A stretch of DNA of 64,000 bases. Source: Candidatus Omnitrophota bacterium. Lineage in GTDB: Bacteria; Omnitrophota; Gorgyraeia; Zapsychrales; JANLHA01. The DNA is taken from the NCBI GenBank assembly GCA_031423615.1, contig JANPFV010000082.1:4208-68207 (forward strand). The letters are read 5' to 3'. The translations under genes were made by a program, and so were the position numbers. The notes below the pieces were generated by a model. The model had not been told where the DNA came from. It saw nothing but the letters and a program-made list of their open reading frames with translations, and ran no database searches. This document shows positions 1,817 through 64,000 of the stretch, piece after piece; positions within the stretch are counted from its first letter, which is position 1; each line of letters starts with the position of its first letter.

Positions 1817-3400
1817 TTATTGCAAGGAATTGTTTGGTTGAGAGACTTTTTTACGGACAGCTATGACATGCGGTTCTTTAAAATTGTCTACAGGCACAAG
1901 ATTATGCACAGATTCACCGGCAATCTGCAGAAAAATATTATCAGAACATAAAAAAATACTGGTATATCCTTCATCTGTCAGAAAACGGAATTCATCTTGG
2001 CGCTTAAGATCATTCCGATCAAAGCGGATTTCGATGACCCGCACCATTGTCCCATTTTTAAGATGATAAACTTTCCGTTTCCAGAGAGAGTCGTTATCGG
2101 TCGTGATTTTGACCGCATCACGACTGAAAAGATAGTTGAATATGCCATAATAATCCCAATTGACCCAAAATACCCGATTATGCTGCAGATCGACCAATGA
2201 CATTCTGACAACACGCCTGTCGATCTTACAGTTATTTTTCCACTGCCCAAGGGGGAAGAACGCGGTGCACATGCGGGTGCGACTTCCGTCAGCCGTGTCA
2301 TACAAGACGGGAAATTTGATAAAAAATCCGCTCACGACAACTTGCCAGATCAATCCGATGATCAAGGTTGCGTATAAAAATAACCCCATCGCCCGATTCT
2401 GGAATCTTTTTAAAAAAATCAATCCCTCAAGGGCCAGCCAGGCCATCACAGGATAAATATACAAAAGATATTTGGGAGTCGTGTTCCCGCGAAAATAAAA
2501 AGCAAAGATGGGAAAAATAGCCAAGAAGCCCCATATGGCCGCCTGGTATTTTCTTTGGGACAAAAGACCCCAAAAGCCAATTATTCCCAAAATAATGATC
2601 GACAGAGGCATGGCCAGAGACGTATTTTTAAAAGGAAAGGAGTACTGGGCAGAAATGTCTTCAAAATGGGCTTGCGTAATCGAACGGATGGAGGCGATAG
2701 AGATATGGGCGAAATTGCCGAGGATTAAGAGGCTTATCGCAAAAACAGTAGAAAAAATAAAAATATTTTTTATGTCCTTTTTAAAATACAGGACCGCGAG
2801 CAAGCACGGGACCATAAAAACAATATCCAATCGAAAAAAAAAGGCCACGGCCGTGAGGACGGCGGCCGTAACCGTCGACAAAACCGTGATTTTTCGTGTC
2901 AGCAAATCCCCCGCCATGTACAAAAACAGCATGGCGGTAATGTTGGTATTATAGTAAGCGCCGCTGATCAAAATTTCATGGATCAATAAGGTAACACCGA
3001 TAAACGCTATGGCGAAAGTTTCGGACTTGAATCGTCTGACGATGAAATAACTTAAAAAGAGAATTAATACCAAGCTGACTTGAGCGATCATCGTTGACAA
3101 AAAAGCCAAGTCCATATGGCAGACTTTGGACATCGTCGTCAACATCGCATAGGTATAAGGCTGGACAGGATAATTGTAAAGAATCGGTTGGTCCACCCCT
3201 CGGATCATTTGCATCGCTCCAGCGATGATGTTACCAGCATCGCCTTCAAAAAAAGGATATGTCGTTAAAGTAAGAAAGTAGACTATATACAGAAAGTAGA
3301 TCGGTAAAAGAATTTTCTTTAATCGATCAGGCAGCATGACTTCTTTTGATTTGCGTTTCGTAGCAGTTAAGGGCAGCAAGAATAGTTTTGTCCATGTCAT
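1817..3400 (-). CDS. Polytopic integral membrane protein, probably a GT-C-type glycosyltransferase of the galactofuranose envelope cluster. The true start is probably the internal Met near 3337 (MLPDRLKK).
   Basis: At least 12 predicted TM segments; sits directly downstream of glf and a GT2; the annotated 5' end overlaps glf by 74 nt. Confidence 0.45.
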   Translation of the reverse strand: MTWTKLFLLPLTATKRKSKEVMLPDRLKKILLPIYFLYIVYFLTLTTYPFFEGDAGNIIAGAMQMIRGVDQPILYNYPVQPYTYAMLTTMSKVCHMDLAFLSTMIAQVSLVLILFLSYFIVRRFKSETFAIAFIGVTLLIHEILISGAYYNTNITAMLFLYMAGDLLTRKITVLSTVTAAVLTAVAFFFRLDIVFMVPCLLAVLYFKKDIKNIFIFSTVFAISLLILGNFAHISIASIRSITQAHFEDISAQYSFPFKNTSLAMPLSIIILGIIGFWGLLSQRKYQAAIWGFLAIFPIFAFYFRGNTTPKYLLYIYPVMAWLALEGLIFLKRFQNRAMGLFLYATLIIGLIWQVVVSGFFIKFPVLYDTADGSRTRMCTAFFPLGQWKNNCKIDRRVVRMSLVDLQHNRVFWVNWDYYGIFNYLFSRDAVKITTDNDSLWKRKVYHLKNGTMVRVIEIRFDRNDLKRQDEFRFLTDEGYTSIFLCSDNIFLQIAGESVHNLVPVDNFKEPHVIAVRKKVSQPNNSLQ

Positions 3401-51465: not shown

Positions 51466-53637
51466 TTATATTTTAGTTAGACCTTGTCGGATCGCCCCTT
51501 GGGTCACTTGCAAAAGATAATCCAGTTCACGTTTTGAAATGGACAAGGGCGGCATCAACACAATCACATTCCCTAGGGGCCGCAAAATAACCCCGCGACG
51601 ACGCGCCTGTTCGCAAACCTTGATTCCGGCCTTATCTTCCCAGGCAAAAGGTTCCCGGGTGGCTTTGTCCTTGACCAGTTCAATACCGGCCATAAATCCC
51701 TTGTGCCGGACATGTCCGACGTGAGGTAAATTATAAAACATTTTTAACTTTTCGCTTAAAATATTTATCTTGGAATGCAAACGCGCCAAGGTATGTTCCT
51801 TGGCAAAAATTTCTAAATTAGCCAGCGCGGCGGCACAGGCCAAGGGATTTCCGGAATACGTATGACCGTGAAAAAATGTTTTCTGGTCCTTATACTCAAA
51901 GACAAAACCGTCAAAAACTTTTTTCGTGACCAAGGTCGCGGCCAACGGCAAATAACCTCCGCTTAACCCTTTGGCCAGACACAAGAAATCCGGCGTGACA
52001 TTGTCGTGTTCACAGGCAAACATTTTTCCCGTCCGGCCAAAACCCGTCGCCACTTCATCAGCAATGAGTAGAACCTCATGCTTTTCACAAAGCTCTTTGA
52101 TCTGCTTTAAAAGGCCGTCCGGCCAGACAATCATTCCCGCCGCTCCCTGCACCACAGGTTCGACAATCAAGACCGCTATTTCTTTAGCCGACTGATGAAA
52201 GAGGGCTTCCAGTTTCTGAAAAGCGTGATCAAAGTTCTGGTCGCGATAACCATCAGGAAAGTCAATTTGTACCGTCGGAAACGTTAAATCTTCATACACT
52301 TTATGAAAAAGGCCGATCCCTCCTACGCTCACACTTCCCAACGTATCGCCATGGTAAGAATTCGCCAGATGAACAATTTTTATTTTTTCCGGACGGCCGG
52401 TATTTTGCCAATATTGATACGCCATCTTAAGGGCGATCTCAACAGCTGTCGATCCATTATCGGAATAAAAAACTTTTTTTAGACCTCGAGGTGCGATCGT
52501 CACCAATTTCTTGGCCAATTCTATAGCCGGAACATGAGAAAGTCCCAGCAATGTCGAATGGTCCAAATGATTCAGCTGATCTTTGATCGCCGCATTAATG
52601 GCAGGATGATTATGGCCATGGACCGTGACCCAGAGGCTAGAAATTCCGTCGAGATAACGCCGTCCTTGCGTATCAATCAAATGGCATCCTTCGGCTCGGT
52701 CAATCACCACGGGGTCCGAGTCCAGCCAATCTTTCATTTGCGTGAAAGGGTGCCAAAGAAAATTCTTGTCGTCATTAACAAGGGAGCTCGTTTTTGTCGA
52801 GTCGGCATAAACCAAAAAGGGGTTGAGGTCTATCTTATCTTTACAAATCTTAAGAATGGCCGCGCAGGAAAGATCCTCACAAAAGGGGATGATTCCTAGC
52901 CCGGGGACCTTGCTAAAATGTTTGATCGCTGCGGGATTGGTTTTTTCGGGCACACCGGGAATTTTCTTTTCACTTTCTGAAAAAATAATACCGGCGACAG
53001 GGATACCCCGGTCGCGGGCTTTGTCAATCGTCAACAGCGTGTGATTGATCGTCCCCAGGCCCAAACGGCTGACAATCACCACCTCGATGCCCATGTCCTT
53101 GATCAGATCCGCAAGCAAATAATCTTCCCGTACCGGCACCATCAATCCGCCCGCACCCTCGACGAGCAAAACATCATGACGCCGCCGCAGTTTTTGAAAA
53201 ATAGAAATTATTTTTTCGCGATGGATCTGTATTTTTTGGCGTTTAAAAGCCACGTGCGGAGAAAAAGGTTCCTTGGCGCAGTAAGGATTTATCTCGGCCA
53301 AGGGGTCGGTGCTCTGCAAGAATTCCTTTAAAACTTTCGCATCATCGCCCCCGCATTGAATCGGTTTCATCACACCGACATCCAAACCTTTGTCTTTAAG
53401 AAGCGTGGCCAGGACCTTGATCGCCGTGGTTTTCCCCACACCCGTATCCGTTGCGGAAATAAAAAACGCCCGTCCCTGTTTTGGTTTTCCTCCTTTGAGA
53501 GGACGCCCGGCGATTTCAGGAACTTTTCGCGGTTTTTCCGCGGGCTTTTCTATTTCCTCATCGATTTCATCAAGGCAATCTAAAGGACTGATCGCATCTT
53601 CATCTTGTTTTCTTTTCATTTTCTCCCCTTTATCCAA
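51466..53637 (-). CDS. Bifunctional dethiobiotin synthetase (BioD) / adenosylmethionine-8-amino-7-oxononanoate aminotransferase (BioA) fusion with a 50-aa charged leader.
   Basis: BioD P-loop GTDTGVGKT in the N-terminal half; class III aminotransferase in the C-terminal half. Confidence 0.85.
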   Translation of the reverse strand: MDKGEKMKRKQDEDAISPLDCLDEIDEEIEKPAEKPRKVPEIAGRPLKGGKPKQGRAFFISATDTGVGKTTAIKVLATLLKDKGLDVGVMKPIQCGGDDAKVLKEFLQSTDPLAEINPYCAKEPFSPHVAFKRQKIQIHREKIISIFQKLRRRHDVLLVEGAGGLMVPVREDYLLADLIKDMGIEVVIVSRLGLGTINHTLLTIDKARDRGIPVAGIIFSESEKKIPGVPEKTNPAAIKHFSKVPGLGIIPFCEDLSCAAILKICKDKIDLNPFLVYADSTKTSSLVNDDKNFLWHPFTQMKDWLDSDPVVIDRAEGCHLIDTQGRRYLDGISSLWVTVHGHNHPAINAAIKDQLNHLDHSTLLGLSHVPAIELAKKLVTIAPRGLKKVFYSDNGSTAVEIALKMAYQYWQNTGRPEKIKIVHLANSYHGDTLGSVSVGGIGLFHKVYEDLTFPTVQIDFPDGYRDQNFDHAFQKLEALFHQSAKEIAVLIVEPVVQGAAGMIVWPDGLLKQIKELCEKHEVLLIADEVATGFGRTGKMFACEHDNVTPDFLCLAKGLSGGYLPLAATLVTKKVFDGFVFEYKDQKTFFHGHTYSGNPLACAAALANLEIFAKEHTLARLHSKINILSEKLKMFYNLPHVGHVRHKGFMAGIELVKDKATREPFAWEDKAGIKVCEQARRRGVILRPLGNVIVLMPPLSISKRELDYLLQVTQGAIRQGLTKI

Positions 53638-54401
53638 ATCACTTCAAAAGAAGCGGCCACTCCCCAACGGCCTTTAAAATTTTTTTCATAATATTCAGAA
53701 ACTTTCGCTAAATATCGCGGGCCAATATAAAAATGAAGGTTTGTCCGGTTTGCCCCAATCAATTTCAGCCAGGTCAGTAAACTGTACAGGTCATCAAAAT
53801 GGGTTTTCGTGATCTCCGACGCGACGACGATGTCCCTGAATCCCGCCGCCGTCAAAGCCTCCTGGATTAGGGCTGAATCAGGGAGTTTCTGCAATTTTCC
53901 GGCGCCACCGTTTTGGCCGGAAATTTTTTCTAACGAAGTAAAAAGTTCTCCTAATGTCCTTTGGCCAAATAAAGTCGCGCGAAATTTTCCGTTCTTTTTA
54001 AGGACCCGTCGAGATTCTGCAAAAGCTTTCGGCAAATCTTTGACCCATTGATAGGCGAGATTGGAAAAAACCGCGCCATAACTTTCATCCGAAAAAGGCA
54101 AGGCCGATGCGTCCGCCTGCACAACGGCGAACGATTCATACTTTTTCTTGGCCTCTTCAACCATGCCGTCGGCAAAATCCACACCGACAACCTGAGCGCC
54201 GGGGCAAAGATGACTCATCCTGTTTGTCAATTTCCCTGTCCCCATGCCGACATCAAGAATCCGTTCGCACGTTTCGTCCCATTCCAATGTCTTAATCAGT
54301 TCACGGCCTATCTCATATTGCATCCCGGATAAGACTTCGTAATGAGCGGCGGAATTGGAAAAGGCCTGACGGATATGTTGGTTGAACTGTTTTAAAATCA
54401 T
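53616..54401 (-). CDS. bioC: Malonyl-ACP O-methyltransferase BioC-like SAM methyltransferase.
   Basis: Class I MTase motif ILDVGMGTG; biotin operon context. Confidence 0.7.
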   Translation of the reverse strand: MILKQFNQHIRQAFSNSAAHYEVLSGMQYEIGRELIKTLEWDETCERILDVGMGTGKLTNRMSHLCPGAQVVGVDFADGMVEEAKKKYESFAVVQADASALPFSDESYGAVFSNLAYQWVKDLPKAFAESRRVLKKNGKFRATLFGQRTLGELFTSLEKISGQNGGAGKLQKLPDSALIQEALTAAGFRDIVVASEITKTHFDDLYSLLTWLKLIGANRTNLHFYIGPRYLAKVSEYYEKNFKGRWGVAASFEVIWIKGRK

Positions 54402-55306
54402 ACTTCTTCCACCCCGGGTCCGGGTGGCGCGGAGGGGAGTCCTCTGCCCGACGAGCCAGACTTTAGCTGGCGAGGCGGGTAGAGTCCCGCAGCGACAGGA
54501 CCCGGAACAATTTCAATAAATTTTTCTACCGCAGCATTGAATGCATGCGGCTGGCTTAGAAACGGAAAGTGTCCGCATTTTTCAAACCAAACGAATTGCG
54601 CCGACGGTATTTTATCGCCTAAGTTTTCATAGAATTCCCGCTGACAAATGTAATCTTCCGTGCCGTTGGCAAATAAAACCGGCAGGGTCAATTTGGAAAA
54701 CGCATCGCGTAAATCGGCGCATTCTAAAATTTCCAAGAAATTAATAAGGGCCTCTTTCTGCGGAACGCTATCGGTTTTCTTAAATCTCTGTATCCACCGA
54801 AACCGTCGTGTTTCGCGTTCTTGCCGGGTAAATAATGAGCGAAAAAAAATATCCACTATCGAAGGATAATCCCTTCGCAATTGTCCCGCCAATTTGCGAA
54901 TGCGCTCTGGGGCCAGCCCAAAAGGATAATCCTCAGAACGGCAAAACTTCGGTTGCGAACCGGCGCAAACAATAAACTTGATGCGTTCACGGCGTAATTC
55001 TAAAAGTTTTAAAGCCACCAAACCACCGAACGAACTGGCGATAAGACCCATTTCTTCACAATTGAGATCAGCCAATAGAAAGTCCACATCTTGTGCGATG
55101 CTTTTTAAGTCGACCTTTTGCCAATCCGTTTTTCCGTGTCCCGGCAGATCGAGAGCGATGACCCGATGTTGAGAAGAAAAGTATTTGAACTGTTGTCGCC
55201 AAATACGGCTGTTGACGCCGAAGCCGTGCAAAAAAAGCAAGGTTGAGCCCTGGCCAGCGATTTCATAATGCCAGTTCAATCCTCGCGGTGTTTTTAAATA
55301 AGGCAT
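54398..55306 (-). CDS. Alpha/beta-hydrolase, BioH-like pimeloyl-ACP methyl ester esterase. The last ~36 codons are encoded by the MITE-like repeat.
   Basis: HGFGVNSRIW...GHGKTD nucleophile-elbow region; the low-complexity tail PGPVAAGLYPPRQLKSGSSGRGLPSAPPGPGVEEV maps onto the repeat. Confidence 0.7.
   Translation of the reverse strand: MPYLKTPRGLNWHYEIAGQGSTLLFLHGFGVNSRIWRQQFKYFSSQHRVIALDLPGHGKTDWQKVDLKSIAQDVDFLLADLNCEEMGLIASSFGGLVALKLLELRRERIKFIVCAGSQPKFCRSEDYPFGLAPERIRKLAGQLRRDYPSIVDIFFRSLFTRQERETRRFRWIQRFKKTDSVPQKEALINFLEILECADLRDAFSKLTLPVLFANGTEDYICQREFYENLGDKIPSAQFVWFEKCGHFPFLSQPHAFNAAVEKFIEIVPGPVAAGLYPPRQLKSGSSGRGLPSAPPGPGVEEV
54414..54505. repeat. GC-rich MITE-like repeat, copy 2 (full length, about 92 bp, terminal inverted repeats CCGGGTCC / GGACCCGG).
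   Basis: Alignment with copy 1; terminal inverted repeats and an internal GCGGG-N6-CCCGC hairpin. Confidence 0.6.
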
Positions 55307-56466
55307 AACTCTTTCCCAATTTTTTTAAAGAGACTCAGCAGAATGTCTAAATCTTCTTGAGTGTGTGTCGCCATGAGGGTTACGCGTAACCGGGCGGTAT
55401 GGGCTGGCACCGTCGGAGGACGGATCGCGGAAACAAGCAATCCCGCCGCAAAAAGTTTTTCAGAAAAACGGACACTCTTATGACTGTCCTTGACTAAGAT
55501 GGGAATGATAGGTGTTTGCGTATGGAGAGTATCAAACCCTAAATCCTTAAGACCTTTCAAAATAAAATGCGTATGATCCCACAGTTTTTTCCGACGGGCC
55601 GGTTCATTTTCAATAATTTCCAGGCCTTTTAAGGAGGCGGCCGCAACAGACGGCGGCAGACCGGTTGTATAAATAAAACTACGCGCCTTATTGATCAAAA
55701 AATTAATCAGCTCTTGAGATCCGCAGACATACGCGCCAAAACTTCCGGCGGCCTTTGAAAATGTTCCCATTTGAATATCAATTTGGCCTTCCAGTCCAAA
55801 ATGCTCGACGCTGCCTTTCCCATTCTTCCCCAAAACCCCCAAACCATGCGCTTCATCAATCATAACGGTACAGTTATACTTCTTTGCCAATAACACAATC
55901 TCAGGTAAAGGCGCAATATCGCCATCCATGCTAAAAACGCTGTCCGTAACGATCAATTTCTTTACGGCTGGCGGTGCGACTTTGAGCATAGCTTCCAAGG
56001 ACTCGGTGTCCGCGTGAGCATAACGTTTATATTCCGCTTGGCTTAACAAAATTCCGTCGATGATTGAGGCGTGATTCAATTTGTCGCTGAAAATCATGTC
56101 GCCCCGGCCGAACAAAGAAGAAATAATTCCGACATTGGCCATATATCCCGTGCTAAAAAGCAAACACCGCGCTGTCCCTTTAAACTGCGCCATCTTTTCT
56201 TCCAGACGGGTATGGCTTGATAAATTGCCGCATACCAAACGGGATGCGCCGGAACCGAAACCTTCCTCATGAAGACTTCTTACCACCGCTTCACCCAGCC
56301 GCATGTCATCCGCCAGTCCCAAATAATTATTGGAACAAAAATTGATAAGTTTCCGTCCCCCGATTGTAATCTCGCGGCCCTGACTACTTTCGAGCGTACG
56401 GATTTCTCGGCGCAGACCTTTATCCGACAATTGGGAAAGGGTGTGATTTAAAAATGTTTCCATCAT
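55294..56466 (-). CDS. bioF: 8-amino-7-oxononanoate synthase.
   Basis: Class II aminotransferase fold with a PLP Lys motif (GTFSKAAGSFG). Confidence 0.85.
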   Translation of the reverse strand: MMETFLNHTLSQLSDKGLRREIRTLESSQGREITIGGRKLINFCSNNYLGLADDMRLGEAVVRSLHEEGFGSGASRLVCGNLSSHTRLEEKMAQFKGTARCLLFSTGYMANVGIISSLFGRGDMIFSDKLNHASIIDGILLSQAEYKRYAHADTESLEAMLKVAPPAVKKLIVTDSVFSMDGDIAPLPEIVLLAKKYNCTVMIDEAHGLGVLGKNGKGSVEHFGLEGQIDIQMGTFSKAAGSFGAYVCGSQELINFLINKARSFIYTTGLPPSVAAASLKGLEIIENEPARRKKLWDHTHFILKGLKDLGFDTLHTQTPIIPILVKDSHKSVRFSEKLFAAGLLVSAIRPPTVPAHTARLRVTLMATHTQEDLDILLSLFKKIGKELCLI

Positions 56467-57434
56467 AGGTTTACTTTTGAGCTTAAATGCACAGCCTCTC
56501 CGGAATGTTTTTTGACCACTTCGCCCGAATCTTTGCGCAAAAGCAAACTCCCGTCGAAAGCCAGATCAAAAGCCAAGCCCTCGATCTCTCCCAGCGGTTC
56601 TACAAATTTAACTCTTTGTCCCAGTGTCCACGATAAATCTTTCCACCGGCCGCTGACCGAAGAGAAGCCTTTCTTTTCAAAAATCTCCAGCCAGGTTTCA
56701 AAAGAACGGAGGATTTCCTGCAAAATACTGAGTCGCGAAAAATCCTTTTGGCCTTGAATTTTTAAAGATGTCGCCTCAACCGGTAATTGCGATATCAAGG
56801 TGTTGACATTGATGCCAAACCCGACGACGACAAAACGGACGCGGTCCATTTCTGCATTCAATTCGGTAAGAATGCCCGCAACTTTTTTCCCGGAAATTAA
56901 AATATCATTAGGCCATTTGATACGGGCCTCTAATCCGGATACGGTACGGATAGCTTCACAAATGGCGACTGCCGACACCAGGGTCAATTGCGCCACTTCA
57001 TTCAGCGGGGTCAGCGGTCTTAAAAGCAACGAAGCGTAAATTCCTTTGCCGGGCGGGGAAACCCATTCCCGGCCCAAACGGCCCCGGCCTTTGGTTTGCG
57101 ATTCCGCACAAACTACCGTTCCCTCTTTGGCCCCGGCAATTCCCAGCCGGACCGCTTCATCCATGGTAGAAGACATCGTTTCTTTATAAATAATATTGTG
57201 ACCGAGGATTTTCGTGCCCAAATTGAATTTGATTTCCCAGGGAAGCAATTTGTCGGGAGAAGTGCGAATACGGTATCCCCGACGGGAAATGGCCTCGATG
57301 TCATATCCTTGACGGCGGAAATCTTCAATATATTTCCAAATGCCTGCGCGACTGATCTTTAAAGCGCGGCTGATTTCTTCCCCGGAAAGATAACCCGGAC
57401 AATTCTTTAAAGAATGAATGATCTGTTCTTGCAT
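56463..57434 (-). CDS. birA: Bifunctional biotin-protein ligase / biotin operon repressor.
   Basis: N-terminal HTH (LSGEEISRALKISRAGIWKYI), a BPL catalytic domain (GRGRLGREW), and a C-terminal SH3-like domain. Confidence 0.85.
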   Translation of the reverse strand: MQEQIIHSLKNCPGYLSGEEISRALKISRAGIWKYIEDFRRQGYDIEAISRRGYRIRTSPDKLLPWEIKFNLGTKILGHNIIYKETMSSTMDEAVRLGIAGAKEGTVVCAESQTKGRGRLGREWVSPPGKGIYASLLLRPLTPLNEVAQLTLVSAVAICEAIRTVSGLEARIKWPNDILISGKKVAGILTELNAEMDRVRFVVVGFGINVNTLISQLPVEATSLKIQGQKDFSRLSILQEILRSFETWLEIFEKKGFSSVSGRWKDLSWTLGQRVKFVEPLGEIEGLAFDLAFDGSLLLRKDSGEVVKKHSGEAVHLSSKVNL

Positions 57435-57441
57435 AGCGATT

Positions 57442-58581
57442 TTATTTTCTCAACTCACGTACAGCTTGAGGCAATTTTTCAATTAAATAATCTATCTGTG
57501 TTTTTGTAGTCGTGCGGCCCAGAGAAATACGTAAAGCTCCTCGTGCCCATTCATCTGACAAACCGATCGCTTTTAAAACATGGGAGGGCTCCATAGCGCC
57601 GGCCTTGCAGGCCGATCCCATAGACGCGGCCATACCGGCCATATCCAAACTCAACAAAAGCGCTTCTCCTTTAATTTTTTCAAAAGAAAAATGCACATTA
57701 TTCGGTAAACGATTGGTCCGGTGTCCATTCAACCGGCTTCCCTCTACCCGCTGTAAAATCTGATCAATCAAAAAATCTCTTAACGCGCGCTGGGATGATG
57801 ATTCCGCCGACATTTTGTCCTGACAAATCTGGACGGCTTTCGCTAAACCCACCGCTCCGGCGACATTCTGCGTTGAAGCGCGACGGCCATTTTCCTGATG
57901 ACCTCCTAAAAATTGACTGGCCAGTTTGATTCCCTTTCTTAAATACAAAGCGCCGATGCCTTTGGGACCATAAAATTTATGCGCCGACAGAGACATCATG
58001 TCCACCTTCATATTTTCAACATTCAACGGCAAGTGCCCCACAGTTTGTACGGCGTCGACATGAAAAAGAATATTTTTCTCGCGGGTGATTCTGCCGATTT
58101 CAGCAACCGGCTCAATGGTCCCGATTTCATTACTGGCGTGCATAATGGAAACCAAAATAGTTTTATCCGTCATTTCCTTATGCAAGGCGTCAAGCGAAAC
58201 ACAGCCTTTTTCATCCACGTCGATATAGGTGACGCGAAAGCCTTCCTTCTCTATATATTGGGCGGTTTCAAGAACCGAGGGATGCTCTATGCGCGATACA
58301 ATAATATGGTTGCCTGCTGGATTAAATCGCCGCGCTGTTCCGAGGAGGGCCAAATTATTTGCTTCTGTGCCGCCGGAGGTAAAAATGATTTCCTCCCGCT
58401 CGGCCCCCAAGAATTTTGCCAGGATATCGCGACTGTCTTCCAGCGCCTTTTGGGCTTCCAGACCAAAGCTGTGCGGGGAGGAAGCATTACCAAATTTTTG
58501 TGTAAAATATGGCATCATAGCGTGGCAGACCTGCGGGTCAGCGGGTGTCGTCGAGGCAAAATCAAAATAAATCTTTTCCAT
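57442..58581 (-). CDS. Cysteine desulfurase (NifS/IscS class I) heading the biotin cluster.
   Basis: PLP Lys motif SLSAHKFYGPKGIGALY and active-site Cys SMGSACK. Confidence 0.85.
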   Translation of the reverse strand: MEKIYFDFASTTPADPQVCHAMMPYFTQKFGNASSPHSFGLEAQKALEDSRDILAKFLGAEREEIIFTSGGTEANNLALLGTARRFNPAGNHIIVSRIEHPSVLETAQYIEKEGFRVTYIDVDEKGCVSLDALHKEMTDKTILVSIMHASNEIGTIEPVAEIGRITREKNILFHVDAVQTVGHLPLNVENMKVDMMSLSAHKFYGPKGIGALYLRKGIKLASQFLGGHQENGRRASTQNVAGAVGLAKAVQICQDKMSAESSSQRALRDFLIDQILQRVEGSRLNGHRTNRLPNNVHFSFEKIKGEALLLSLDMAGMAASMGSACKAGAMEPSHVLKAIGLSDEWARGALRISLGRTTTKTQIDYLIEKLPQAVRELRK

Positions 58582-58653: not shown

Positions 58654-58704
58654 AATAGTTTCGGACGTTACCATAAAGATGTTGTGCCGTCCTTCATACG
58701 ACGT

Positions 58705-58794
58705 CATCAACGCCACAGCCAAACGGCTGTGAGGCGTTGCGCCGTCGCAAAAACTCCGCCATCAACGCCACAGCCAAACGGCTGTGAGGCGTTG
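58705..58794. repeat. Two copies of a 35-bp near-perfect palindrome separated by 20 nt, in the divergent nifS / tRNA-Ala promoter region.
   Basis: CATCAACGCCACAGCCAAACGGCTGTGAGGCGTTG occurs at 58705-58739 and 58760-58794. The second copy's 3' end supplies the TTGACA -35 of the tRNA-Ala promoter, with TATATT -10 at 58815-58820. Confidence 0.55.
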
Positions 58795-58832
58795 ACAAAT
58801 AAAAATCCCAATGCTATATTGGGAAATCTTTT

Positions 58833-58905
<73 letters not shown>

Positions 58906-59047
58906 CTTGTTTCTCTAAGTAGAGCGTCCCGCTTAACACGCGGGAAGAACACGATTTCGACTTTCGTCAGCTTTACTTGTTTCTCTAAGTAGAGCGTCCC
59001 GCTTAACACGCGGGAAGAACACGTTCTCGACTTTCGTCAGCTCCACC
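58906..59047 (+). pseudogene. Two tandem ~70-nt degenerate tRNA-3'-two-thirds-like units (D-arm 3' strand, anticodon arm, T-arm, acceptor 3' strand) directly abutting tRNA-Ala.
   Basis: The units begin CTTGTTTCTCTAA GTAGAGCG TCCCGC-UUAACAC-GCGGGA ... CGTCAGC, matching the tRNA-Ala framework (GTAGAGCG ... CGTCAGCTCCA). They have no 5' acceptor or D-stem partner. Unit 2 ends CAGCTCC-A-CCA. Confidence 0.55.
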
Positions 59048-59104
59048 AAGTTTTTTGTCGAAGACAAAATTTCTCCGAAGGGTCGCTGGTTTAGAATTTT
59101 TATT

Positions 59105-59188
59105 GCTGGAGTGGCGGAACTGGTATACGCGCTAGTCTCAAAAACTAGTCACTTCACGGTGGTGAGGGTTCGATTCCCTCCTCCAGCA
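59105..59188 (+). tRNA. tRNA-Leu (anticodon CAA), type II with a long variable arm.
   Basis: GCUGGAG acceptor, a GUGGCGGAACUGGUAUACGCGC D-arm close to E. coli tRNA-Leu, a CUCAAAA anticodon loop, a long variable arm and a GGGUUCGAUUCCC T-arm. Confidence 0.85.
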
Positions 59189-59220
59189 TTTATTTATCTG
59201 CTTTACCCGTCGGTATTTCA

Positions 59221-60306
59221 TTACTTACTTCCCTTCTCTGGCACACGTTTTGGCACAAAACCCAAGTCTATTGTTGTTACTTTCAGCCCTTGTTTGACCG
59301 CTTCCTTTGAGCTGTGGGCATAATGTTCAAGGATCGTCCGGGTGTCCTTATGGCCCGTTATAGACTTAATAACCTCCGTGTTCCCTGTCTGGTCAAGAAG
59401 GTTAGTAACAACCCGGTGGCGAAAAATATGCGGGGAGATCGGCTTCGTGATACCACATCTTTTAGCGGCCCATTTTACGCGCTCGTAAATTTTATTTCTG
59501 CCCTGCAAATTGCCTCTCCTGCTTGGAAAAACAAGACCTTTGGGATGATACAGTTTTCGTTTTCTTAACTGGTGAAAGTGTTCCGCTAAGATCATGACAT
59601 CCTGCTCTTGAAGATCGTGGGCACGTTCCACACCCGTTTTGGTTTCGCGGATATAGATTTTATTTGCCTCTAAATCGACGTCGCTGACTCGCAAATGCCT
59701 CAACTCGTCTCTGCGCCATCCCCACGTTGCCATCAAATAGACCCAAGGGAAAGTGATGATGTCGTTCTTCTGAAACCACAAAAGGATATTCTTAACCTCA
59801 ACATCTGTGGGAATCTGTACGACCTTCTTCACTTCTTTTAAATATCGTATGTTCTGGATAGGAGACTGATCAAAAATTTTGTCCTTAACAGCTTGGCAGA
59901 AAATTATCCTTAAATTACGAAGGTCACAGTTGATGCCGGCGGCGGAACGAGGCTTAGGCTTCGTCGTTTCTTGAGCATGGATATAATCACGGATCAAATT
60001 CTCGGTTATATCCTTTAAAGATATATCTCCGCAACTGGCTAGAAATCTGCTGAAACTGAGGGCTGTAAATTCACAGCGGATCTTCGTCGAAGGAGTCTTG
60101 TATCTCTTTTCAATGAACATAGCGGCAAAATCTGAAAACTTCAGGTCTTTCCGGGGCGGTTGTGTCCCCTCAACCTCACGACGTGTCGCCTCCTTGCGGG
60201 CGGCGGCTTGCGTATATTTATCAAAAGGTAATGGGTCATAATACCTAACGCCCTTAACACGCCACCAGATTTGCCAGTATCCTTTTCTTTTACGAACTCC
60301 GGCCAT
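59221..60306 (-). CDS. int: Tyrosine-type site-specific integrase; start re-assigned to MAGVRKRKGYW.
   Basis: C-terminal catalytic HIFRHRVVTNLL ... GHKDTRTILEHYAH (R, HxxR and Y); the stop lies 32 nt from tRNA-Leu. Confidence 0.85.
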   Translation of the reverse strand: MAGVRKRKGYWQIWWRVKGVRYYDPLPFDKYTQAAARKEATRREVEGTQPPRKDLKFSDFAAMFIEKRYKTPSTKIRCEFTALSFSRFLASCGDISLKDITENLIRDYIHAQETTKPKPRSAAGINCDLRNLRIIFCQAVKDKIFDQSPIQNIRYLKEVKKVVQIPTDVEVKNILLWFQKNDIITFPWVYLMATWGWRRDELRHLRVSDVDLEANKIYIRETKTGVERAHDLQEQDVMILAEHFHQLRKRKLYHPKGLVFPSRRGNLQGRNKIYERVKWAAKRCGITKPISPHIFRHRVVTNLLDQTGNTEVIKSITGHKDTRTILEHYAHSSKEAVKQGLKVTTIDLGFVPKRVPEKGSK

Positions 60307-60466
60307 CGCTCTCCTCAGAACAAGCCTTGAGGACTTGTTCAACATCAAAACGTCGGTGCTTCCCTATCCTAAGAGATTTAATTTTACCTTCCCGCACGTA
60401 TCGCATTACACTTGACGCTGGAACTTTTAGAATCTTCGCGATCCCCTCAACATCTGTGATGTGCAT
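60290..60466 (-). CDS. xis: Excisionase/AlpA-family HTH DNA-binding protein (58 aa), not in the ORF track; overlaps the int start.
   Basis: Hand-translated as MHITDVEGIAKILKVPASSVMRYVREGKIKSLRIGKHRRFDVEQVLKACSEESDGRSS; GGAGG Shine-Dalgarno 6 nt upstream. Confidence 0.6.
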   Translation of the reverse strand: MHITDVEGIAKILKVPASSVMRYVREGKIKSLRIGKHRRFDVEQVLKACSEESDGRSS

Positions 60467-62782: not shown

Positions 62783-64000
62783 TCATCCAGCTGAACTTGC
62801 CGCTAATTCGGGCTCTCGGGCTGGCTCCTTAGGTGCTTGCCCTAAAAAAATAGGCAATGTCTGTGCGTTAACTGGCACAATATTGATGATGATGGGAAAT
62901 AGTCCTTGAATATTGATCTGCTCTAAATTCTGTTGCGGCAATGGCAACGGCACACCTTTACCATCGCGCTTGATTTGCAAATTCATATTCGTCGGGTCAA
63001 AGTCGATACCGCCGACGGCTGCAGATGAAGAAGTAGCTGCCCCACTAGCTTCTCCACTTATCGGCGCTGAGGCGGCCTTCCCATTATTGACCCCACTCGA
63101 GGCGGCGGCATTCGGAAAGAATATCCGCACAATAAGTCGCGGGTCGACCCTATATTTCGAACCAATTGCGCCGTAATCACCAAATCTGCCAATTTTCTCG
63201 GCGGTGATACCGCTAACGCTCATGAGACTACGGCCATTTTCGTCGACTAAATCACCAGAAAGATTAGTAAGCAATTTCGGATCAAATGCCGACTGATCCC
63301 GAGTACTTCTATGCGTTGTAAAAAAAAGCCCTACCCTTCCACCTAAAAAATACTCTGGGAACTTTAAAGCCAAAGCCAATTGTTGGTGGGTTAAACCGAC
63401 CGACCGCACATATTCATCGTCGGCTATCATTTGCTCTCTTTCCTCAGGGTAGACTATTTGTCCGTTTATCGACACTAACGATTCGAGTTGTCCGGGTTCC
63501 CAGACAGTCTGCGCAGGGGCAGCTTCATATAATCCTAATTCCAAACCGATTGATCCACGCAAAGGTATGTTGCCTGCACTAAAGTTTTGGTCATTAGGGA
63601 GTTCTTGCGTGTACGTTTCTTTAAAAGCCGGGTTCAAATTTAAAATATGCGGTATTCCGCCTGCCTTAGTTAATATATACATTTTTCCATTTTCGGCGCG
63701 AGGTTGACTTGTAAAAGCAATGACATCGTCCAGAAGAATATCAAAAACATTGGGTTCTTCACCATCTTTTCCAGCTTCAACATGTATTGCATTGTTTCTT
63801 ATTTCCAAGACCCTTATATCGGTCATAAAGCGGGGTAATTCTTTCAGCCGTTCTAATGTCGCTTCAGCCTGCTCAACAGTGAGCGATGGTCTTTGCATTA
63901 AAGATTCTGCTGAAACGGCAGAAACGTACTGGACAGGTCCTTTTGTATAATCGCCCTTTGGTGCCGGAGTAACCACTCCTGATACCTGAAATACCGGCGG
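62783..64000 (-). CDS. Cargo gene D: large hypothetical protein of at least 405 aa, 5'-partial (the reading frame stays open to the window edge), with a low-complexity Ala/Ser/Gly-rich C-terminal region.
   Basis: No in-frame stop between the track's GTG start at 63976 and position 64000. Separated from gene C by a 207-nt AT-rich spacer. Confidence 0.45.
   Translation of the reverse strand, partial: PPVFQVSGVVTPAPKGDYTKGPVQYVSAVSAESLMQRPSLTVEQAEATLERLKELPRFMTDIRVLEIRNNAIHVEAGKDGEEPNVFDILLDDVIAFTSQPRAENGKMYILTKAGGIPHILNLNPAFKETYTQELPNDQNFSAGNIPLRGSIGLELGLYEAAPAQTVWEPGQLESLVSINGQIVYPEEREQMIADDEYVRSVGLTHQQLALALKFPEYFLGGRVGLFFTTHRSTRDQSAFDPKLLTNLSGDLVDENGRSLMSVSGITAEKIGRFGDYGAIGSKYRVDPRLIVRIFFPNAAASSGVNNGKAASAPISGEASGAATSSSAAVGGIDFDPTNMNLQIKRDGKGVPLPLPQQNLEQINIQGLFPIIINIVPVNAQTLPIFLGQAPKEPAREPELAASSAG

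Follow-up and report, generated by a model that had tools for sequence, protein, structure and literature searches.

Two tandem units of probable tRNA-Ala origin between the tRNA-Ala and tRNA-Leu genes of an Omnitrophota bacterium

The 140 bases directly behind the tRNA-Ala(GGC) gene of a Candidatus Omnitrophota bacterium are best explained as two tandem copies of a 70-nt module originating from the 3' three-quarters of that tRNA. The module would have kept G26 and the D-stem 3' strand, a hairpin in the place of the anticodon arm, the 5-nt variable region, the T arm and the acceptor 3' strand. Judged by the comparison of related loci, it is old and inherited and is found at the corresponding site of no fewer than three further Omnitrophota lineages. 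The origin from tRNA-Ala and the array dynamics proposed below are held with considerable confidence. The whole reading, i.e. a tRNA-Ala-derived module which was duplicated by unequal crossing-over and serves as a co-transcribed tRNA-like spacer module, is held with about even confidence.

Layout of the array and its derivation from tRNA-Ala

The analysed DNA, referred to as the window, was a 64,000-nt stretch of contig JANPFV010000082.1 (Candidatus Omnitrophota bacterium, GCA_031423615.1). The best matches of the NifS-type cysteine desulfurase encoded next to the locus were named Candidatus Omnitrophica or Omnitrophota. The features of the locus are presented in Table 1. The promoter matched 11 of the 12 consensus positions and was kept in the related loci L082, L084, L104 and L110. 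A second, clearly conserved palindrome was located at the -35 box of the same operon, upstream of the promoter, and was found to covary. The tRNA-Ala(GGC) gene is functional, with A as the discriminator (58905), a G3:U70 pair and no encoded CCA.

Table 1. Positions of the features of the tRNA-Ala/tRNA-Leu locus in the window.
Feature	Positions	Strand	Remarks
Sigma-70-type promoter, tRNA-Ala/tRNA-Leu operon	58792-58820	+	TTGACA, 17 nt, TATATT; TG before it
tRNA-Ala(GGC)	58833-58905	+	ARAGORN; Rfam RF00005, 67.5 bits
Copy A of the 3'-end block	58880-58905	+	last 26 nt of tRNA-Ala
Unit 1 (70 nt)	58906-58975	+	tandem repeat; covariance model R1, 86 bits
Unit 1, spacer	58906-58918		
Unit 1, GTAGAGCG	58919-58926		
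Unit 1, TCCCGC	58927-58932		
Unit 1, loop TTAACAC	58933-58939		
Unit 1, GCGGGA	58940-58945		
Unit 1, AGAAC	58946-58950		
Unit 1, decayed T arm	58951-58967		
Unit 1, GCTTTA	58970-58975		3' end, preceded by CA; copy B
Unit 2 (70 nt)	58976-59045	+	T arm more decayed than in unit 1; CAGCTCCA = copy C
Unit 2, 44-nt core	58976-59019	+	same as in unit 1
Unit 2, GTAGAGCG	58989-58996	+	
Encoded CCA	59046-59048	+	
Encoded CCA and remnant of the ancestral Ala-Leu spacer	59046-59103	+	
AT-rich hairpin TTTTGTC-GAA-GACAAAA	59053-59069	+	followed by CTCCGAAGGG and TCGCTGGTTTA
tRNA-Leu(CAA)	59104-59189	+	ARAGORN; Rfam, 60.9 bits; second operon gene; attachment site of the adjacent integrase island
Tyrosine integrase	59221-60348		PF00589; beyond tRNA-Leu

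An earlier note on this DNA had described two direct repeats of about 70 nt immediately behind the tRNA-Ala discriminator, and both were present. Each unit consisted, in order, of a 13-nt spacer CTTGTTTCTCTAA, GTAGAGCG, TCCCGC-TTAACAC-GCGGGA, AGAAC, a decayed T arm and a copy of the acceptor 3' strand, the ends being CAGCTTTA in unit 1 and CAGCTCCA in unit 2. All the parts which the note had listed, including the perfect 6-bp stem with the TTAACAC loop, the degenerate T arms, the CCA encoded after the second unit and the small hairpin behind the repeats, were read in the sequence. The statement that the units differ only in the T-arm region had to be corrected: of the four differing positions only two belong to the T arm, and the acceptor strand accounts for the others (TTT vs TCC).

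With Tandem Repeats Finder, a single array was detected at 58880-59046 with a period of 70, 2.4 copies, 90% matches and a score of 285. It was the sole tandem repeat with a score of at least 60 in the 64-kb window, and general repeat-richness of the genome was therefore rejected as its cause. The repeat search resulted in three copies of the tRNA 3'-end block (A, B and C), 70 nt apart and starting at 58880, 58950 and 59020. The block of 26-27 nt reaches from position 48, the base before the T stem, to the discriminator; its three copies shared 81% identity, and the likeness to the tRNA continues upstream in register. The 29-nt core GAGCGTCCCGCTTAACACGCGGGAAGAAC occurred exactly twice, with zero occurrences expected by chance. 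An antisense ORF of 100 aa (58707-59009) was rejected, since the unit length is 70 or 71 nt depending on the genome and the ORF runs antisense to the tRNA.

The units were not called as tRNAs. On the + strand nothing was detected in them by ARAGORN in the default, -ps, -ps80 and -mt modes, the pseudogene search suggested in the earlier note thus being included, and no match to Rfam RF00005 was obtained at E<=10, in agreement with the view that they are not functional tRNAs. The stem at the anticodon-arm position has 6 bp, compared with 5 in a tRNA. The loop of the window, UUAACAC, fits an anticodon-type loop by its 7 nt, U33 and a purine at 37, whereas the AAAACAC loop of L082 and L084 is without U33 and that of L104 has 10 nt. 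It had also been claimed that neither unit possesses a 5' acceptor or D-stem partner. Canonical partners were indeed missing, but GTAGAGC is complementary to GCTTTAC at the 3' end of the same unit, so each unit can close on itself. GTAGAGCG had been read in the earlier note as the D-stem 3' strand; its counterpart in L082 and L084, ATGGAGCG, is not a D-stem copy but a perfect complement of the acceptor 3' strand together with the discriminator (GCTCCA).

The derivation of the units was followed with the covariance model R1, built from seven units of four genomes. The model matched the genuine tRNA-Ala(GGC) genes in 10 related loci with 34-46 bits and E values of about 1e-6 to 1e-9, which indicates that the units are tRNA-Ala-derived and homologous to the tRNA over their length. 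The search with this type of model covered 25 sources and yielded no additional diverged units. The foreign part is the hairpin at the place of the anticodon arm, where TCCCGC/GCGGGA stands instead of CTTGC/GCAAG of the tRNA. A tmRNA fragment was also considered as tmRNA has the same CAGCTCCACCA end, and it was rejected because the T arm of the units matches the local tRNA-Ala variant of each genome and no tmRNA was found by ARAGORN.

The module in related genomes and the dynamics of the array

Syntenic loci were fetched through the NifS protein encoded beside the locus. Among the matches listed in a genome scan by NifS alignment, most belonged to distant phyla and L002 was the only useful one. 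The gene order of NifS, divergently transcribed tRNA-Ala(GGC) and tRNA-Leu(CAA) was conserved among the relatives. The comparison with these loci, which the earlier note had called for, revealed the same module in L082, L084 and L104 and a decayed form of it in L110. L082 and L084, with NifS 73% and 71% identical to that of the window, each carried two tandem 71-nt units between tRNA-Ala and tRNA-Leu with the core ATGGAGCG-TCCCGC-AAAACAC-GCGGGA-AGAAC; in L082, unit 2 had a decayed 3' end. L104 (NifS 68% identical) had a fuller pseudo-tRNA, inside which the contig stops. Its likeness to tRNA-Ala reaches the D loop (CTGG-AGAGCG vs CTGGGAGAGCG), a 5' piece GGGCTGTAGCTCC is located upstream, and the variable loop and T arm are identical to those of its own tRNA-Ala variant, which differs from that of the window. 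In L110, a sister of L104, the decayed unit CAGCTCCA-TTTGTTTTAGC-GTAGAGCG-GATAGC-GAAAA-GCGGGAAG had no T arm. In L105 the same stem was found upstream of tRNA-Ala, where it is fused with a copied acceptor 5' strand (GGGGCTG-TCCCGC-GTC-GCGGGA-CTAGCCCC), and the contig ends inside tRNA-Ala.

The module was absent at the locus in L086, L088, L090, L103, L106, L107/L108 and L002. Where it was missing, the spacer was occupied by hairpins of another kind, by a tandem repeat of a different, 52-nt type or by a small ORF, and the Ala-Leu spacer as such was highly plastic, with other repeats, long hairpins or a small ORF in L090, L106, L002 and L107. The absence from several relatives and the decay in L110 indicate that the module is dispensable. 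By NifS identity the unit-bearing lineages do not form a clade, which implies either several losses of an ancestral module or its transfer.

The copies within one genome did not evolve independently. In L082, L084 and the window, the 43-44-nt cores showed no differences in 134 positions, whereas the 3'-end blocks B and C differed at 11 of 78 (Fisher p = 1e-5). The middle copy was an exact hybrid in L082, its 5' part being as in copy C and its 3' part as in copy A; in L084 it was the same as copy A. In the window, copy B had three changes in common with copy C and a private CC-to-TT change, and the three 3'-end copies differed from each other at 4-5 positions each. A middle copy which is a hybrid of its neighbours, together with identical cores, is the expected product of unequal crossing-over or slippage. 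Such an event between the last and the first 3'-end copies of a one-unit ancestor would have produced the second unit, separately in the L082 and L084 lineages unless conversion followed afterwards. Recombination among the 26-nt copies has probably made the second unit and the hybrid middle copy and homogenised the cores within each genome.

The same recombination offers a way of loss. The 3' flank of tRNA-Ala in L086 and L088 aligned with the sequence following unit 2 in the window, and copy C with the CCA and the hairpin behind it aligned with the tRNA-Ala 3' end and flank of these two loci. The whole stretch from the CCA to tRNA-Leu was homologous to the L086/L088 spacer, the hairpin stem having changed from GTC/GAC to GTT/AAC in L086. 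By these alignments copy C is the displaced ancestral 3' end of tRNA-Ala. If copies A and C recombined, the module would be removed without a remnant and tRNA-Ala would be joined to the CCA and the AT-rich hairpin, which is the arrangement present in L086 and L088. Because loss is easy in this way, mobility gains little support from the patchy occurrence of the module. The tRNA-derived tandem repeat, given as a second option in the earlier note, proved to be the better one. The description of the locus as a recombination hotspot was also borne out, as the spacer content varies and the integrase island at tRNA-Leu is shared with L110. This island extends past position 64000, and a second copy of the tRNA-Leu 3' end, which would be its attR, was not found in the window.

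Comparison with attachment-site remnants

The first option of the earlier note was that the units are attachment-site scars left by repeated integration and loss of elements. The recombinational activity of the locus, the tRNA origin of the units and the original flank kept by copy C support the interpretation in part; repeated integration and loss does not fit. Excision by an integrase leaves no scar. The two 43-nt intervals between the 3'-end copies are identical and so cannot be independent deletion remnants, neither an integrase nor cargo is located between the copies, and the middle copy is a hybrid. Lineages whose NifS is no more than 68-73% identical moreover carry this module at the corresponding position.

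A different form of scar was weighed, in which an integrative element recombined with tRNA-Ala in the T-stem region and thereby provided the gene with a new 3' end. Nearly all of the element would then have been lost by deletion, and the 43 nt left between the regenerated and the displaced 3' ends would have been duplicated by unequal crossing-over. The hairpin would then be a piece of a conserved attP, e.g. a recombinase core site of two 6-bp inverted repeats around 7 bp. We consider this origin unlikely, although several observations are in line with it. The repeated 26-nt block has the size of the identity block of T-stem-type att sites, and Islander holds 1836 islands of the T-stem att type (PMC4383910). 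The last copy has the ancestral CCA and the 3' flank which in L086 and L088 follow tRNA-Ala directly. A tyrosine-integrase island is present at the neighbouring tRNA-Leu, and integrase DNA about 85-90% identical to it was found at tRNA-Leu in L110, the host NifS of which is only 69% identical. In L088 a partial duplicate of the tRNA-Leu 3' end was detected. The module is patchy among the relatives, and the hairpin geometry of 6 bp, 7 nt and 6 bp holds for the window, L082 and L084.

These observations are met by others. The tandem islands of Islander each need an integrase of their own, but between the tRNA-Ala gene and the fragments there are only the 43-44 nt, identical in both units, and the only integrase lies beyond tRNA-Leu (Table 1). 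The in-register likeness to tRNA-Ala goes past the identity block, which an att block would not require, and includes the D strand, G26, the stem, the 7-nt loop and the 5-nt variable region; in L104 it extends to the D loop and the 5' acceptor strand. In the copies of L104 and L105 the loop measures 10, 9 and 3 nt, and this hardly suits a core site with fixed spacing. The core was also unmatched elsewhere: neither the exact nor the degenerate core patterns matched in IMG/VR, blastn of the units against phages and plasmids resulted in no match, and the 12 matches of GAGCGTYYYGC-N7-GCRRRAAGAAC in JGI metagenomes were all in coding regions of unrelated organisms and are due to chance. A true displaced tRNA-Ala(GGC) fragment, that of a provirus in IMG/VR, begins in the anticodon loop and has the tRNA's own sequence, which the units do not.

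Compared with displaced tDNA fragments (the Islander principle; the sublocations of Williams 2002), the array shares the direct repeats of the tRNA 3' end downstream of the gene, the last copy with the original flank and a tyrosine-integrase island, which is here at the neighbouring tRNA-Leu. It differs in having no island or integrase between the copies, in the identical 43-44-nt intervals, in the tRNA-foreign hairpin and in being common to divergent lineages. The remnant of an ancient island may have been the seed of the tRNA-Ala-derived module.

Conserved hairpin, predicted fold and possible role

In the window, L082, L084 and L104, 19 positions were invariant (GAGCG, TCCCGC, GCGGGA and AG), and the variable parts were the spacer and the loops TTAACAC, AAAACAC and TTGTTTGACA. 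The other intergenic DNA of these genomes, with NifS identities of 68-73%, was alignable only at the promoter and the hairpins. In L110 the same stem was decayed. The pattern argues for constraint on the stem where it is kept, as far as the aligned sequences of three to four independent lineages can tell. As the stem never varies there is no covariation, and what is constrained may be an RNA, the DNA or a recognition sequence. In the 64 kb, CCCGC-N(3-12)-GCGGG was found only at the two units, and in the related loci only beside tRNA-Ala. With only two copies in 64 kb, a dispersed or genome-wide hairpin repeat of the REP/MITE type was ruled out. A CRISPR array or CRISPR-like hairpin was rejected as well, since the units are contiguous, the sequence between the hairpins is itself repeated and there are no unique spacers.

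When folded with the spacer, five of the six full-length units gave a predicted three-way junction without a D arm, composed of an acceptor-like helix, the conserved hairpin and the T hairpin. The acceptor-like helix is formed by GTAGAGC/GCTTTAC in the window and by TGGAGC/GCTCCA in L082 and L084. Without the spacer, the three-way junction was obtained with four of five units with z values of about -3 to -4.5; the z value of window unit 1 was -2.96, and window unit 2 without the spacer folded otherwise (z = -1.93). The closing helix was perfected in different ways, by the CC to TT change of the 3' strand in window unit 1 and by an A to G change of the 5' strand in L082 and L084. This lineage-specific perfecting is suggestive but anecdotal support for the fold. 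The T stems of the window have only 3-4 of 5 pairs, and each 3'-end copy could form a competing local hairpin with the next GTAGAGC. The acceptor-like helix is shifted by one base from the real acceptor stem and is followed by two unpaired nucleotides (CA) before the T stem; owing to this gap and the shift in register, recognition of the units by RNase P or RNase Z is uncertain.

The tRNA genes are preceded by one strong promoter and no terminator-like site was found between tRNA-Ala and tRNA-Leu, and the units are therefore presumed to belong to the Ala-Leu precursor. Their co-transcription with both tRNAs from the single promoter is likely on these grounds. A co-transcribed tRNA-like spacer module is our best guess as to what the units would be. 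Each unit would adopt the D-armless, tRNA-like three-way junction and be treated by RNase P and RNase Z in the fashion of t-elements, and the invariant hairpin would mark a selected role in the processing or insulation of the two tRNAs. RNase P and RNase Z accept substrates without D and anticodon arms, and tRNA mimics of the mascRNA type form an analogy to such units. The t-elements are tRNA-like and are cut by both RNase P and RNase Z (PMC1920247, PMC4326828). The tolerance of the two enzymes and this precedent make a tRNA-like processing of the units plausible by analogy. By their predicted fold the units resemble the t-elements known from Haloferax constructs and plant mitochondria, which are non-tRNA sequences with an acceptor-like stem and a hairpin like a T arm inside a longer transcript. 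In contrast to the t-elements, the helix of the Omnitrophota unit is register-shifted with a 2-nt bulge, and the units flank tRNAs which already bear their own processing signals. A t-element-like role is put forward only tentatively, being somewhat doubtful. A further step, a selected and processed D-armless tRNA-like small RNA released from the tRNA-Ala/tRNA-Leu precursor in several Omnitrophota, is given a low probability. Such an RNA would be the bacterial equivalent of the t-elements or of mascRNA-type mimics. In that case the hairpin would be a specific recognition element for a protein or RNase, and for the operon the RNA might be a decoy, a regulator or an insulator in processing.

The units could also have no function at all. 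A partial tandem duplication of tRNA-Ala would then be decaying as a pseudogene, and conversion and unequal crossing-over with the live tRNA would slow the decay. The T arms of the window, the 3' end of unit 2 in L082 and the whole unit in L110 have decayed, the module is missing from many relatives, the central stem is without covariation, and the spacer is highly plastic in the clade (L090, L106, L002, L107), as neutral decay would have it. However, tRNA-Ala lacks the stem, which therefore cannot be maintained by conversion from the tRNA. The 19 core positions are identical despite the 68-73% NifS identity, in genomes where the remaining intergenic DNA can be aligned only at the promoter and hairpins, and the same stem recurs in two other contexts of tRNA-Ala fragments, in L104 and L105. 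We give this explanation a small share of the probability. The units resemble tRNA pseudogenes and partial duplications in being truncated, uncallable as tRNA and derived from the adjacent gene; they differ from them in the non-tRNA hairpin strictly conserved across genera and in the copies which evolve in concert.

Even less probable is a site acting at the level of DNA, with the TCCCGC-N-GCGGGA palindrome as a protein-binding or cruciform element on the operon and the tRNA-like surroundings as incidental. The stem sequence is invariant and the loops vary, and the -35 box of the operon carries a palindrome too, but the loop length of 3 to 10 nt is incompatible with the fixed half-site spacing of a dimeric binder, and the palindrome is situated inside the transcribed spacer. 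We know of no candidate protein that would bind it. A duplicated or collapsed repeat arising in assembly has a practically negligible probability: short-read metagenome assemblies do break here (L104 inside the unit, L105 inside tRNA-Ala), but the 3'-end copies differ at several positions each, the middle one with private changes, and the two-unit layout was also found in two independent assemblies of other species (L082, L084).

The closest precedent for the array of tRNA-Ala-derived units is the distal repeats of E. coli tyrT/tyrV (rttR small RNA, tpr), which also start inside the 3' end of the last tRNA-Tyr and have units ending with a copy of that end. In E. coli tyrV a 178-bp unit was repeated 3.1 times (Tandem Repeats Finder score 1014), every unit ended in AATCCTTCCCCCACCACCA, and rttR is annotated there. 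According to Bosl and Kersten (1991), as cited in PMC3318445, the array is transcribed together with the tRNA and gives rise to an RNA product. The 178-bp E. coli unit differs in containing only 19 nt of tRNA, without a tRNA-like fold or a hairpin at the anticodon-arm position. There is no sequence similarity between the two systems, and the Omnitrophota units of 70 nt are almost wholly tRNA-shaped and located between two tRNA genes.

From the comparison of the loci, the array is an oddity which this tRNA operon has inherited; neither a recent integration nor faulty assembly accounts for it. Should the units be nothing more than duplicated fragments of a pseudo-tRNA, they still illustrate clearly how the spacer of a tRNA operon is duplicated, evolves in concert and is cleanly lost through short copies of a tRNA 3' end. 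They are also a warning for island-finding programs that set an island border at every tRNA 3' fragment. Should the hairpin and the tRNA-like fold be functional, the units would represent a structured RNA of tRNA origin from an uncultivated phylum, the boundaries of which are defined here.

Repeats and hairpins around tRNA-Ala

The spacer between tRNA-Ala(GGC) and tRNA-Leu(CAA) is a hotspot of unrelated tandem repeats within the clade. In the syntenic locus L090, the spacer contained a tandem repeat different from the tRNA-Ala-derived units of the window, about 52 nt long, present in five to six copies and with GCAGAGCAAGCTCTGC as its hairpin; a further two repeats, each about 100 nt long, were located between the promoter and tRNA-Ala of the same locus. 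Three hairpins were detected in the spacers of the related loci L086 and L088: one with a stem rich in AT, one formed by CCCCGAAGGGG, and a long one with the stem TCGCTGGTTTAAATCC...GGATTTAAACCGTTTAGCGA. The spacer of the window is a truncated version of this arrangement, and in L086 the AT-rich stem showed a compensated change from GTC/GAC to GTT/AAC. In the more distant relatives L002 and L107, a small ORF resembling a membrane protein lies between the two tRNA genes. The coordinates are presented in the table.

Several short-read contigs stopped in or beside the tRNA-Ala region (L083, L085, L087, and L104 and L105 at position 1), the end of L104 falling within a unit and that of L105 within tRNA-Ala. 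Such breaks would fit with either repeats or strain heterogeneity at the site.

Coordinates of the features at the tRNA-Ala/tRNA-Leu locus and at the compared loci
Feature	Location	Strand	Remark
Biotin cluster, upstream genes	window 53616-58581	-	
Two tandem 55-nt repeats	window 58681-58795		upstream of tRNA-Ala
Hairpins within the 55-nt repeats	window 58708-58739 and 58763-58794		one per copy
Ala-Leu spacer hairpin regions	window 59046-59103; L086 2542-2648; L088 385-478		
Tyrosine integrase region	window 59190-60348		PF00589 + SAM-like domain
Tandem repeats of L090	L090 2290-2560 and 2650-2850	-	
Membrane-protein-like spacer ORF	L002 3300-3700; L107 2132-2533		133 aa in L107
Partial copies of tRNA-Ala 5' acceptor strand	L105 ~75-100; L107 ~2690-2730; L086 ~2745-2775	-	
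Sides of provirus junction	L113 8340-8397; L114 11-84		

The palindromic element upstream of tRNA-Ala

Each copy of the 55-nt repeat in the window forms an interrupted hairpin of 13 bp, CAACGCC-ACAGCC ... GGCTGT-GA-GGCGTTG, and the end of the tRNA-Ala-proximal copy falls within the -35 box TTGACA. In the comparison of five genomes, all 65 of the 65 cells were paired, with two-sided changes at 4 pairs and one-sided changes at 0; the related locus L084 had three copies of the repeat. Its location 5' of both divergent promoters means that the element may not be RNA but rather a cruciform or a palindromic operator. The biotin cluster of the window, comprising a BioC-like methyltransferase, an alpha/beta hydrolase, BioF, BirA and the NifS-like cysteine desulfurase, kept its synteny across the clade.

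Alleles and partial copies of tRNA-Ala

At the syntenic site, tRNA-Ala(GGC) occurred as two alleles (L086 versus L088; also L002, L104, L107 and L110), one with the D loop AGTTGGTA and the T arm ACGAG/CTCGT, the other with AGCTGGGA and AGGGG/CCCCT. The alleles are patchy across the relatives, as the NifS proteins of L086 and L088 are 83% identical, yet their alleles differ, which suggests that the tRNA-Ala gene was replaced through recombination. In L105, L107 and L086, the promoter is separated from the real tRNA-Ala by partial copies of its 5' acceptor strand, GGGGCT(G), fused to a hairpin. In L105, the copy has the stem TCCCGC/GCGGGA, identical to that of the 3' units, resulting in a minihelix-like GGGGCTG-hairpin-AGCCCC.

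Signs of integration at the tRNA genes

The IMG/VR contigs L113 and L114, from a high-GC organism, each cover one side of the junction between a provirus and a tRNA-Ala(GGC) in which the T arm and the acceptor strand are the same. L114 carries the intact gene with an adjoining integrase-like ORF, and L113 a displaced fragment, the first base of which is in the anticodon loop.

In L088 (~260-330, - strand), a partial duplicate of the tRNA-Leu 3' end was observed about 19 nt past tRNA-Leu. Its T arm is now an 8-bp palindrome, GAGGGAAT-CGAAGA-ATTCCCTC, followed by the same TAAATT flank; this short duplicate resembles a scar and has its analogue in the tRNA-Ala units. No second copy of the tRNA-Leu 3' end was found in the window.

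The tyrosine integrase of the window starts 32 nt past tRNA-Leu; downstream of it lie an HTH protein and ORFs without annotation. Over the first ~500 nt past tRNA-Leu, identity was ~85-90% to the DNA found at the corresponding place in L110 (420-960, - strand), where the island appears truncated, despite only 69% identity between the NifS proteins. This difference in identity indicates a mobile island family with tRNA-Leu(CAA) as its target in Omnitrophota.
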